A DNA stretch of 64,000 nt, taken from the NCBI RefSeq assembly GCF_003334785.1, contig NZ_QOWV01000003.1, one strand, 5' to 3'. The notes below the pieces were generated by a model. It was not told the DNA's origin. It worked only from the letters and a program-made list of their open reading frames with translations, and ran no database searches. Made by a program: the position numbers and the translations under genes. This DNA comes from Escherichia coli (lineage in GTDB: Bacteria; Pseudomonadota; Gammaproteobacteria; Enterobacterales; Enterobacteriaceae). This document shows, piece by piece, positions 33,217 through 55,878 of the stretch (within the stretch, counting starts at the first letter, position 1; each line of letters starts with the position of its first letter).

Positions 33217-34245
33217 TTACTGCTGGCGTAGCTGGAGATCCAGCGGCGTTTTGCTGGGTTCGCCGCCAATTTCTCGCGCCAGTTTCGGCACCAGATATCC
33301 CGACACCAGTGTCAGCAACTCACGCATAATCTGCCGTGCTTCGTCATCACTCACCATAAAATGCGCCGCGCCCTGTACTTTATCGAGCACATGCAGGTAA
33401 TACGGCATTACGCCGGCATCGAACAACGCATTACTCAGGTTTGCCAGCGTTTGTGCGTTATCGTTCACATCACGTAACAGAACGCTCTGGTTCAGCAAAG
33501 TAACGCCTACCCGGCGCAACTTAGCCATCGCCTGACGGAATGTTTCATCTACCTCATTGGCATGGTTGATGTGATTCACCAGCAAGATTTGCAGCGTAGA
33601 ACGGGCAAAGCATTCAACCAGCGCCTCGGTGATACGTGCCGGGATCACAATCGGCAGACGGCTGTGAATCCGCAGACGTTTTATATGCGGGATGGCTTCC
33701 AGTTGTGTGAGCAACCAGTCCAGCTCGTGATCTTTCGCCATCAGCGGATCGCCGCCGGAGAAAATCATCTCGTCCAGTTCCGGATGCGCAGCAACATACT
33801 CAAGTGCAGTTTGCCAGTTACGCTTGTTGCCCTGATTTTCGGCATAGGGGAAGTGACGACGGAAGCAATAGCGGCAATTTACCGCGCAGCCGCCTTTGAC
33901 CAGCAAAAGCGCCCGGTTGTGGTATTTATGCAACAAACCAGGCACTACGCTGTGCTGTTCTTCCAGTGGGTCGGTGGAGAATCCGGGCGCGATGACAAAC
34001 TCATCTTGCGAGGTAAGTACCTGACGCAAAAGAGGATCGTCCGGATTGCCTTTCTCCATGCGATCGATAAATGAGCGGGGCACACGCAGGGCAAAAAGCT
34101 TTTTGGCGCTGCGTCCGGCTAACAGTTTTTCCTCCGCGTCTATATTCAAAAGACGCAGAAGTTCATCAGGATCGGTCACAACATCGGCAAGTTGCGTTAA
34201 CCAATCTTCTCTGGATGGGGTATTTAGGGTTACAATATGCGCCAT
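33217..34245 (-). CDS. epmB: lysine 2,3-aminomutase (EF-P beta-lysylation pathway, radical SAM)
   Basis: 342-aa ORF MAHIVTLNTPSREDWLTQLADVV... with CxxxCxxC radical-SAM motif (CAVNCRYC); divergent from efp. Confidence 0.93.
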   Translation of the reverse strand: MAHIVTLNTPSREDWLTQLADVVTDPDELLRLLNIDAEEKLLAGRSAKKLFALRVPRSFIDRMEKGNPDDPLLRQVLTSQDEFVIAPGFSTDPLEEQHSVVPGLLHKYHNRALLLVKGGCAVNCRYCFRRHFPYAENQGNKRNWQTALEYVAAHPELDEMIFSGGDPLMAKDHELDWLLTQLEAIPHIKRLRIHSRLPIVIPARITEALVECFARSTLQILLVNHINHANEVDETFRQAMAKLRRVGVTLLNQSVLLRDVNDNAQTLANLSNALFDAGVMPYYLHVLDKVQGAAHFMVSDDEARQIMRELLTLVSGYLVPKLAREIGGEPSKTPLDLQLRQQ

Positions 34246-34286: not shown

Positions 34287-34853
34287 ATGGCAACGTACTA
34301 TAGCAACGATTTTCGTGCTGGTCTTAAAATCATGTTAGACGGCGAACCTTACGCGGTTGAAGCGAGTGAATTCGTAAAACCGGGTAAAGGCCAGGCATTT
34401 GCTCGCGTTAAACTGCGTCGTCTGCTGACCGGTACTCGCGTAGAAAAAACCTTCAAATCTACTGATTCCGCTGAAGGCGCTGATGTTGTCGATATGAACC
34501 TGACTTACCTGTACAACGACGGTGAGTTCTGGCACTTCATGAACAACGAAACTTTCGAGCAGCTGTCTGCTGATGCAAAAGCAATTGGTGACAACGCTAA
34601 ATGGCTGCTGGATCAGGCAGAGTGTATCGTAACTCTGTGGAATGGTCAGCCGATCTCCGTTACTCCGCCGAACTTCGTTGAACTGGAAATCGTTGATACC
34701 GATCCGGGCCTGAAAGGTGATACCGCAGGTACTGGTGGCAAACCGGCTACCCTGTCTACTGGCGCTGTGGTTAAAGTTCCGCTGTTTGTACAAATCGGCG
34801 AAGTCATCAAAGTGGATACCCGCTCTGGTGAATACGTCTCTCGCGTGAAGTAA
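34287..34853 (+). CDS. efp: translation elongation factor P
   Basis: 188-aa [49 protein letters not shown]... with the conserved KPGKGQA loop. Confidence 0.97.
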
Positions 34854-50947: not shown

Positions 50948-51023
<76 letters not shown>

Positions 51024-51058: not shown

Positions 51059-51134
<76 letters not shown>

Positions 51135-51403: not shown

Positions 51404-52541
51404 TCAGGCGTCACGCGGTAACCCTTTTTCAATCACCCGAACCAGACGCTGTTTTTTCGGCAATTGCACTTCGACTATGCACGCATTTCGTCTCTCTATT
51501 TGCTGCGCAATCGCCCACGCTATGTGCTCATCGAGAAGTGGGTGCTCACCTTTACGACTTTCCAGCGCTGTCAAAATCGTTTCATCCCAAGGGGCATTGC
51601 CTAATGCTACGGCGATATTACGCAGCCAACGCAGGTGACCAATACGACGAATCGCCGATCCTTCCGTGACTTTTAAAAACTTCTCTTCGCTCCAGGCGAA
51701 TAACTCAATGAGTTCCGGTGCGTGTAGCGGCTTACGCGGGCTGAAATCCTCTTCTGTGGTGAGTTGTGAATAGCGATTCCACGGGCAGATAAGCTGGCAG
51801 TCATCGCAACCGTAAATACGGTTTCCCATTAACGGTCGCAACTCTTCCGGGATCGCCCCTTCAAGTTCGATGGTGAGATAAGAGATACAGCGGCGAGCAT
51901 CGACGGTATATGGCTCGACGATGGCACCGGTCGGGCAAATCGTCATACAGGCCACGCATTTGCCGCATCCTTCCTCGACTGGTTGATCCACGGGCAGCGG
52001 AATATCGACCAGCAATTCGCCTAAAAAGAAGAACGAACCGGCCTCGCGATTGAGGATAAGTGAGTGCTTACCTGTCCAGCCGAGCCCAGCTTTTTCAGCT
52101 AACGGGCGCTCGAGAATAGGCGCAGAATCGACAAACGGTCTAAAATTCAGCGAAACACAATGTTGCTGAATCATCTCGCCCAGCTTTTTGAGTCGGTTGC
52201 GCAGAAGTTTGTGATAGTCACGGCCCAGCGCATAACGGCTAACATAGCCGAGTTTGGGGTTTTTCAGCGTGCTGGCAAATGCGGCGTTAGCAGGAAGGTA
52301 ATTCATCCGCACGCTGATCACGCGCAGCGTACCGGGCAATAACTCATGAGGGCGAGCGCGCAGCATACCGTGACGTGCCATCCAGTCCATTTCGCCGTGG
52401 TATTGTTTGTCCAGCCATGCTTGCAGTTTGGGCTCGGACTCGCTGAGATCGGTATCGGTAATACCTACCTGCTGAAAGCCCAGTTCCAGCCCCCACTGTT
52501 TAATTTTTTGCGCTAACTGATTGAGATCGAGGGGCTCTGAC

Positions 52542-52543
<2 letters not shown>
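51404..52543 (-). CDS. queG: epoxyqueuosine reductase (cobalamin/Fe-S)
   Basis: ORF 51404..52651; start moved to MSEPLDLNQLAQKIKQWGLELGFQQVG (379 aa); two 4Fe-4S ferredoxin motifs (CGKCVACMTICP, CDDCQLICP). Confidence 0.9.
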
Positions 52544-54540: not shown

Positions 54541-55878
54541 ATGATGTATCGCATCAGAAATTGGTTGGTAGCGACGCTGCTGCTGCTGTGCACGCCGGTG
54601 GGTGCCGCGACGCTCTCTGATATTCAGGTTTCTAACGGTAATCAACAGGCGCGGATAACGTTGAGTTTTATTGGCGATCCTGATTATGCGTTTAGCCATC
54701 AAAGCAAACGCACCGTGGCGCTCGATATCAAACAAACGGGCGTGATTCAGGGACTGCCGTTGTTGTTCAGCGGCAATAATCTGGTGAAGGCGATTCGCTC
54801 TGGAACGCCTAAAGATGCACAAACGCTACGGCTGGTGGTCGATCTTACCGAAAACGGTAAAACCGAAGCGGTGAAGCGGCAGAATGGCAGCAATTACACT
54901 GTCGTCTTTACGATTAACGCCGATGTGCCGCCACCGCCTCCTCCGCCGCCCGTGGTTGCGAAACGCGTTGAAACGCCTGCGGTTGTCGCACCGCGCGTCA
55001 GCGAACCGGCGCGCAATCCGTTTAAAACGGAAAGTAACCGCACTACGGGTGTTATCAGCAGTAATACGGTAACGCGTCCGGCAGCGCGCGCGACGGCTAA
55101 CACTGGCGATAAAATTATCATCGCTATTGATGCCGGACACGGCGGTCAGGACCCTGGCGCTATCGGCCCCGGTGGTACGCGGGAGAAAAATGTCACCATC
55201 GCCATCGCGCGTAAATTGCGTACTTTGCTCAATGACGATCCGATGTTTAAAGGCGTTTTAACCCGTGACGGGGATTACTTTATCTCGGTGATGGGGCGCA
55301 GTGATGTGGCACGTAAGCAAAACGCCAATTTCCTCGTGTCGATTCACGCTGATGCCGCACCGAACCGCAGTGCGACTGGCGCTTCCGTATGGGTGCTCTC
55401 TAACCGTCGCGCCAACAGTGAAATGGCCAGCTGGCTGGAGCAGCACGAGAAACAGTCGGAGCTGCTGGGTGGGGCGGGTGATGTGCTGGCGAACAGTCAG
55501 TCTGACCCCTATTTAAGCCAGGCGGTGCTGGATTTACAGTTCGGTCATTCCCAGCGGGTAGGGTATGATGTAGCGACCAGTATGATCAGTCAGTTGCAAC
55601 GCATTGGCGAAATACATAAACGTCGACCAGAACACGCCAGCCTTGGCGTTCTGCGCTCGCCGGATATCCCATCAGTACTGGTCGAAACCGGTTTTATCAG
55701 CAACAACAGCGAAGAACGTTTGCTGGCGAGCGACGATTACCAACAACAGCTGGCAGAAGCCATTTACAAAGGCCTGCGCAATTACTTCCTTGCGCATCCG
55801 ATGCAATCTGCGCCGCAGGGTGCAACGGCACAAACTGCCAGTACGGTGACGACGCCAGATCGCACGCTGCCAAACTAA
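54541..55878 (+). CDS. amiB: N-acetylmuramoyl-L-alanine amidase AmiB
   Basis: ORF 54526..55878; start at [28 protein letters not shown] (445 aa); Amidase_3 domain; eight consecutive Pro. Confidence 0.93.

Follow-up and report, generated by a model that had tools for sequence, protein, structure and literature searches.

An eight-proline tract in the AmiB linker of Escherichia coli: a documented EF-P-dependent pause site whose nearness to efp, epmA, and epmB probably reflects ancestral gene order

The cell-separation amidase AmiB of Escherichia coli carries eight consecutive prolines at the start of the linker that joins its two domains, and this run depends on elongation factor P (EF-P) for smooth translation, as is already documented. 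The initial annotation of the stretch of DNA analyzed here (64,000 nucleotides, hereafter the window) had described the proline run, interpreted AmiB as an EF-P client, and drawn attention to the genes for EF-P and two of its modification enzymes in the same neighborhood. The sequence observation and the client interpretation are both correct, and both were already in the literature; the significance of the neighborhood is not upheld by the comparisons described below. Beyond this confirmation, the analysis makes two modest additions, namely the polymorphism of the tract across lineages and the recognition of a second client, CadC, within the window.

Considered jointly, it is very probable that the tract represents a lineage-specific polyproline spacer in the linker, that the pause it imposes is shortened in trans by EF-P, and that its proximity to the EF-P genes is merely ancestral. 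In mechanistic terms, the tract would serve as a spacer that opens a flexible linker between the septum-targeting AMIN domain and the amidase domain. An eight-residue polyproline-II rod is stiff and about 2.5 nm long, and the tract may form a stiff spacer of this kind. Because peptide bonds between successive prolines form slowly, ribosomes pause on the eight codons, to an extent detectable even in the wild type, and beta-lysylated EF-P, a diffusible factor that depends on efp, epmA, and epmB and acts in trans on hundreds of mRNAs, keeps the pause short. In cells without EF-P, ribosomes would be expected to pile up before the tract, with few passing it. The closeness of amiB to efp, epmA, and epmB would play no mechanistic part in this scheme.

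The window is, by sequence comparison, E. coli K-12-like DNA. A 2-kb query around the tract finds a match in every complete E. coli genome (5,426 of 5,426), with 100% identity to K-12 MG1655 records, and the whole window gives a 99.98% alignment with an MG1655 chromosome record. Annotation transferred from that record yields 58 complete coding sequences, from melA to yjeT, and all of their proteins are identical to those of MG1655, with the exception of one residue in HflX. The amiB coding sequence (54541–55878, + strand), present both in the list of open reading frames and in the RefSeq annotation of the MG1655 record, specifies the N-acetylmuramoyl-L-alanine amidase AmiB of 445 amino acids, and its translation shows no differences from RefSeq AmiB of MG1655 (WP_000990333.1). 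The gene is present in every one of the complete E. coli genomes (5426/5426).

Direct reading of the sequence bears out the octaproline PPPPPPPP at AmiB residues 130–137, numbered from the annotated ATG at 54541. The tract (54928–54951, + strand) is in frame with amiB and reads ccg cca ccg cct cct ccg ccg ccc, with gtg as the next codon. It is a real compositional feature, far above i.i.d. chance, because an i.i.d. proteome of 1.35 M residues with the proline frequency of the window (4.46%) would be expected to hold only 2e-5 runs of at least eight prolines. An antisense open reading frame covering the same region (54826–55140, containing GRRRRRWR) was considered and set aside as the mere complement of the CCN run, without support of its own.

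The domain organization of AmiB places the tract at a boundary. The AMIN domain (residues 27–112; 54619–54876, + strand) is recognized by Pfam PF11741 (E=7.9e-4), and the Amidase_3 catalytic domain (residues 194–413; 55120–55779, + strand) by PF01520 (E=4.3e-48), the latter region also matching PDB entry 8c0j (E=5e-143). With both domains present and orthology to E. coli AmiB established, the protein is an AmiB-type cell-separation amidase of the AMIN plus Amidase_3 class. Between the two Pfam domains lies an inter-domain linker of 66 residues (residues 128–193; 54922–55119, + strand), and the proline run lies at the N-terminal end of this AMIN-to-Amidase_3 linker. The last conserved AMIN strand, VVFTINAD, ends just upstream of the run, and the motif is kept in homologues. 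The solved AmiB structure, 8c0j, spans residues 190–422 only and omits the proline tract.

This location is one that polyproline motifs often occupy. According to Qi et al. (2018; PMC5811046), such motifs are depleted inside domains and frequent close to domain ends (−2 to +9 residues); linkers of E. coli proteins are likewise enriched in them, and a role as a co-translational folding aid has been proposed. The AmiB tract, which starts directly after the last strand of AMIN, falls inside the −2 to +9 window. AmiB orthologues from other families of Enterobacterales do without the motif, and a folding benefit for AmiB has the status of a proposal.

As a polyproline stall site, the tract combines the sequence requirement, at least three consecutive in-frame proline codons in a translated open reading frame, with the behavior in published data, namely pausing in vivo and an increase in pausing upon deletion of efp. 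Martens et al. (2015; PMC4402525) identified the eight proline codons of amiB as the longest such stretch in E. coli and reported a sharp ribosome-footprint peak at these codons in the wild type. Ribosome profiling of an efp deletion, which the initial annotation had put forward as a check, had already been published as well: in the data of Sieber et al. (2024; PMC11611912, Suppl. Data 3B), amiB asymmetry scores, which cover six PPP positions and the PPV position and come from a single supplementary table, are 1.0–1.24 in the wild type and 6.7–10.5 in the efp deletion, a rise of about 6-10-fold. In the same table, the scores are 1.0–2.9 in the efpL deletion and 3.8–6.7 in the efp deletion with EfpL overproduced. 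The wild-type footprint peak and the rise in asymmetry upon loss of efp support AmiB as a strong EF-P client. [quoted passage not shown]

AmiB output may also depend on EpmA and EpmB. PPP proteins in general depend on YjeA and YjeK (PMC4176338); AmiB is absent from the text and supplements of that study, and it has no match in the supplements of Elgamal 2014 or Starosta 2014. For epmA and epmB, the literature search turned up no data specific to AmiB, and the accessible literature contained no report of AmiB protein levels in efp, epmA, or epmB mutants.

AmiB shares with general XPPX and polyproline clients of EF-P, including the 94 PPP proteins of E. coli, the slow chemistry of Pro-Pro bond formation that is relieved by beta-lysyl-EF-P, and differs from them just in the extreme length of its run for E. 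coli (PMC4402525). Among its paralogues, AmiC resembles AmiB in having an AMIN domain followed by a linker, and AmiC and AmiA both have the same catalytic domain as AmiB (matches to 4bin and 8c2o); unlike AmiB, however, both are absent from the list of E. coli PPP proteins (PMC4218817 Table S4). Only AmiB proteins from Escherichia, Citrobacter, and their close relatives have the polyproline spacer. The same list contains other PPP proteins involved in peptidoglycan remodeling: NlpD (the AmiC activator), MepA, MrcA/PBP1A, NlpC, and FtsK.

A homologue search at 90% identity recovered sequences from Escherichia, Shigella, and Citrobacter and one Salmonella-labelled cluster only. Among the clusters at 90% identity that are closest to E. 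coli, most Citrobacter AmiB sequences carry eight prolines (P8), with a few P9, P7, P6A, or P4A forms, and P8 is common to most Citrobacter and Escherichia clusters. At 50% identity, 52 representatives with an AMIN and an amidase domain were compared; their linkers contain PPP or a longer run in 6 cases, PP in 9, and no PP in 37. AmiB of Yersiniaceae (68% identity) and of Sodalis lacks any PPP. The tract is thus of recent origin, limited to Escherichia, Citrobacter, and their close relatives, and no requirement of AmiB. The Yersiniaceae AmiB (10001–11707 in the extracted locus) is a protein of 568 amino acids with C-terminal LysM repeats that are absent from E. coli AmiB, and its AMIN-amidase linker contains no polyproline.

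The tract also varies within E. coli. K-12 and O157:H7 carry P8, an O145:H28 strain carries P7, two strains carry P6, and ST131 carries PPSPPP followed by M. With the ST131 allele as query, 711 genomes (13%) match at ≥99% identity and are of the PPSPPP type, 140 genomes (2.6%) match at 95–99% and have P6-type alleles equal in length to the ST131 allele, and 4,574 genomes (84%) match at 90–95% and have alleles of eight or seven codons, all of these frequencies reflecting the choice of sequenced strains, in which ST131 is heavily sampled. The 84% class is nearly all P8 in the sample: P8 was found in five of five sampled alleles without an indel relative to K-12, and the 3-bp-shorter length of P7 occurred in a single row among 60 evenly spaced genomes. 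The residue preceding the run is V in K-12 and A in most other strains, and the ST131-type sequence reads DA-PPSPPP-M. Together with the absence of the tract from other Enterobacterales families, this polymorphism offers a set of natural variants with which a role as a stall can be tested against a role as a spacer.

A length difference of 36 bp in amiB of E. coli M15 (NZ_CP185789.1) was initially a candidate tract variant and was discarded. It is a tandem duplication within the signal peptide of the gene (542–1915), which gives an AmiB of 457 amino acids, and the tract is unchanged.

Distribution and allelic variation also bear on what selection may have acted upon. It is conceivable that the pause itself is selected, such that a slow-down after synthesis of the AMIN domain aids export or folding, or limits the copy number of AmiB, with the spacer being secondary. 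Such a view is compatible with the spacer explanation, from which it differs only in the target of selection, and it would fit the enrichment of motifs at −2 to +9 residues from domain ends with its proposed folding aid (PMC5811046), the footprint peak that is visible even with EF-P present (PMC4402525), the low copy number proposed as the reason for the PPP of CadC (PMC8129111), and the retention of P8 across Escherichia and Citrobacter. However, the PPSPPP form occurs in about 13% and P6-type alleles in about 3% of complete E. coli genomes as sampled, and AmiB proteins of Yersiniaceae, Sodalis, and more distant groups have the same domain architecture and no PPP; therefore, neither the length of the tract nor a strong pause is required. 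The codons (4 CCG, 1 CCA, 2 CCT, and 1 CCC) are also close to the genome average (PMC8129111), with no sign of tuning. On balance, we consider it unlikely that the pause was the target.

At the other extreme, the tract could be the product of neutral expansion, in which a (CCN)n repeat that is prone to slippage reached eight copies by drift, in a linker that tolerates it and without any selected role. In-frame P9, P8, P7, and P6 forms and interrupted forms all occur within Escherichia and Citrobacter, more distant AmiB proteins lack the tract, and the linker in which it sits is unstructured, all of which would be expected from such drift. Against this, P8 is the majority form in Escherichia and Citrobacter despite a general selection against polyproline in E. 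coli (PMC5811046), which argues for some constraint, for instance on the stiffness or length of the linker, and drift alone strikes us as decidedly improbable. A spacer whose pause is relieved by EF-P remains the preferred account of the tract.

The genes for the factor and its modification enzymes all encode proteins identical to those of MG1655. They comprise efp (34287–34853, + strand), for elongation factor P itself (188 amino acids), the trans-acting factor that relieves stalls; epmB, also called yjeK (33217–34245, − strand), for a modification enzyme of the lysine 2,3-aminomutase type, which is divergent from efp; and epmA, also called yjeA or poxA (41231–42208, + strand), for the EF-P-(R)-beta-lysine ligase. 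Measured to the tract, the distance is 20,075 bp for efp (from its end), 20,683 bp for epmB, and 12,720 bp for epmA. The initial annotation had located all three genes within 20 kb of this client; its coordinates are right and epmA, at 12.7 kb, is within that distance, but efp (20.1 kb) and epmB (20.7 kb) fall outside it by at most a few hundred bases.

The importance attached to this arrangement is not supported, in view of three observations: the number of PPP genes in the vicinity is at expectation, the genes belong to separate transcription units, and the synteny exists in Yersiniaceae without a PPP in AmiB. The E. coli proteins that contain PPP number 94, and the entry for AmiB has 2 PPP units (Mandal 2014; PMC4218817 Table S4). 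From this number, the expectation is 0.85 PPP genes within ±21 kb of efp, where two, AmiB and CadC, are observed (P(≥2)=0.21), and among the 58 complete coding sequences of the window 1.27 are expected versus 2 observed (P=0.36). More than 12 further genes, distributed over both strands, and an array of tRNA-Gly genes lie between amiB and the efp, epmA, and epmB genes; frdABCD, ampC, mscM, the tRNA-Gly array, and others separate amiB from the efp region.

In the Yersiniaceae genome GCA_002858785.1, the gene order is epmB-efp-ecnAB-blc-frdDCBA-epmA-mscM-psd-rsgA-orn-queG-nnr-tsaE-amiB-mutL-miaA-hfq-hflXKC, which matches that of the window apart from a few inserted genes, and efp is 16 kb from amiB. 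The AmiB of this genome, the single Yersiniaceae genome in the synteny comparison, has 68% identity and contains no PPP, just two PP dipeptides. Because a matching order thus accompanies an AmiB without PPP, the nearness of amiB to efp, epmA, and epmB is best understood as an ancestral Enterobacterales gene order that probably predates the tract, with no functional link.

The contrary proposition, that factor and client benefit from co-location, by being co-regulated or by a local supply of EF-P, we regard as exceedingly improbable. It can draw on the longest-run gene lying only 20 kb from efp; for this gene alone, the chance of a position ≤20.1 kb from efp is 0.9% (P about 0.009), a figure that answers a post-hoc question about one pre-named gene in one genome. 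It can also draw on CadC, another strong client, 13.8 kb from efp on the other side. The features expected of a functional cluster are nevertheless lacking: the genes are neither adjacent nor co-transcribed, being 12.7–20.7 kb apart in separate units on both strands with many genes and the tRNA-Gly array between them; clients are not enriched near the factor (P=0.21); and proximity is not tied to the tract across genomes, in a comparison with one genome whose matching gene order includes a PPP-less AmiB. EF-P, moreover, works in trans on many mRNAs, with 388 genes listed as dependent on EF-P or EfpL (PMC11611912), and cadC has a tRNA-Phe gene and the remnant of an integrase as neighbors, a setting typical of variable regions. 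An ancestral neighborhood around a client that is served in trans is therefore retained as the explanation.

CadC, a well-studied EF-P client, is the one further protein with a PPP that the 58 coding sequences of the window specify, and it was not mentioned in the initial annotation, so the window carries two strong EF-P clients, AmiB and CadC, rather than one. The cadC coding sequence (18984–20522, − strand) lies 13.8 kb from efp, closer than amiB, and its translation contains the proline triplet in the context LSSPPPIPEA (residues 120–122; 20157–20165, − strand). This triplet has been discussed in the literature, with low copy number proposed as the reason for its presence (PMC8129111), and in the asymmetry table that includes amiB its score rises from 2.6 in the wild type to 10.8 without efp (PMC11611912). 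The two proteins are alike in having an in-frame PPP and in being low-abundance, envelope-associated proteins, and their scores without efp reach similar values (from approximately 2.6 to approximately 10.8 for CadC, and from approximately 1.1 to 6.7–10.5 for AmiB). They differ in that CadC has three prolines, in the cytoplasmic linker of a membrane-bound regulator, whereas AmiB has eight and is a periplasmic enzyme; in addition, control of CadC copy number by EF-P has a described physiological role, and none was found described for the AmiB tract. Adjoining cadC are the cadBA genes for lysine decarboxylation (15058–18619, − strand), and lysU (11788–13305, − strand) is a further neighbor. The product of lysU is lysyl-tRNA synthetase, hence of the paralogue class of EpmA.

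Downstream of the tract, mutL starts 9 bases past the amiB stop codon and is followed by miaA, hfq, hflX, hflK, and hflC on the same strand. Given this layout, it could be imagined that low EF-P, through a stall in amiB, uncouples transcription from translation and leads to Rho termination, with less expression of mutL, miaA, hfq, and hflXKC. A reporter with PPPPPP does show Rho-dependent loss of the downstream transcript in an efp deletion (PMC5021804), but amiB and mutL have 0 occurrences in that paper. The C/G ratio is about 0.9–1.0 over the 400 bases 3′ of the tract, and by composition no rut-like C-rich, G-poor stretch is present in these 400 bases. Any such polarity would also be buffered by promoters internal to the operon that serve miaA and hfq. 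A polarity switch of this kind is, in our estimation, very improbable; were it real, EF-P status would affect mutL and hfq expression, and nothing here points in that direction.

An extension of the same idea would make the tract a sensor of EF-P activity, in which limiting EF-P or beta-lysylation lowers AmiB along with read-through into mutL-miaA-hfq-hflXKC and the PPSPPP and P6 alleles set lineage-specific thresholds. Mismatch repair and Hfq levels would then be tied to the status of a translation factor, and we hold this idea to be highly doubtful. More generally, the tract shares with the arrest peptides SecM, TnaC, and MgtL a pause that depends on the nascent chain and occurs inside an operon with downstream genes. 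These peptides, however, are encoded by short dedicated leader open reading frames, their arrest sequences are conserved, and a defined RNA switch lies downstream, whereas the AmiB tract lies inside an enzyme, is variable in length, and shows no associated switch, such that the likeness is a resemblance only.

Two CCU-C sequons (cct-cct and cct-ccg, 54937–54945) occur in the tract, and the examined P8 and P7 alleles retain them. According to Krafczyk et al. (2021), sequons of this class tend to cause +1 frameshifting, and selection acts against them in E. coli. A +1 shift at the tract would add 42–43 residues before a stop codon.

Elsewhere in the window, two tRNA-Gly(GCC) genes are present (50948–51023 and 51059–51134), and the MG1655 record NZ_CP032667.1 annotates three. 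Relative to that record, the window is without one 111-bp tRNA-Gly repeat unit, and it further differs by 9 mismatches, one additional 1-bp indel, and the single HflX residue change. Next to the tRNA-Gly array, a RefSeq-annotated hypothetical protein of 17 amino acids (WP_010723271.1; 51368–51421, + strand) is encoded by an open reading frame that overlaps the 3′ end of queG (51404–52543, − strand) on the opposite strand.
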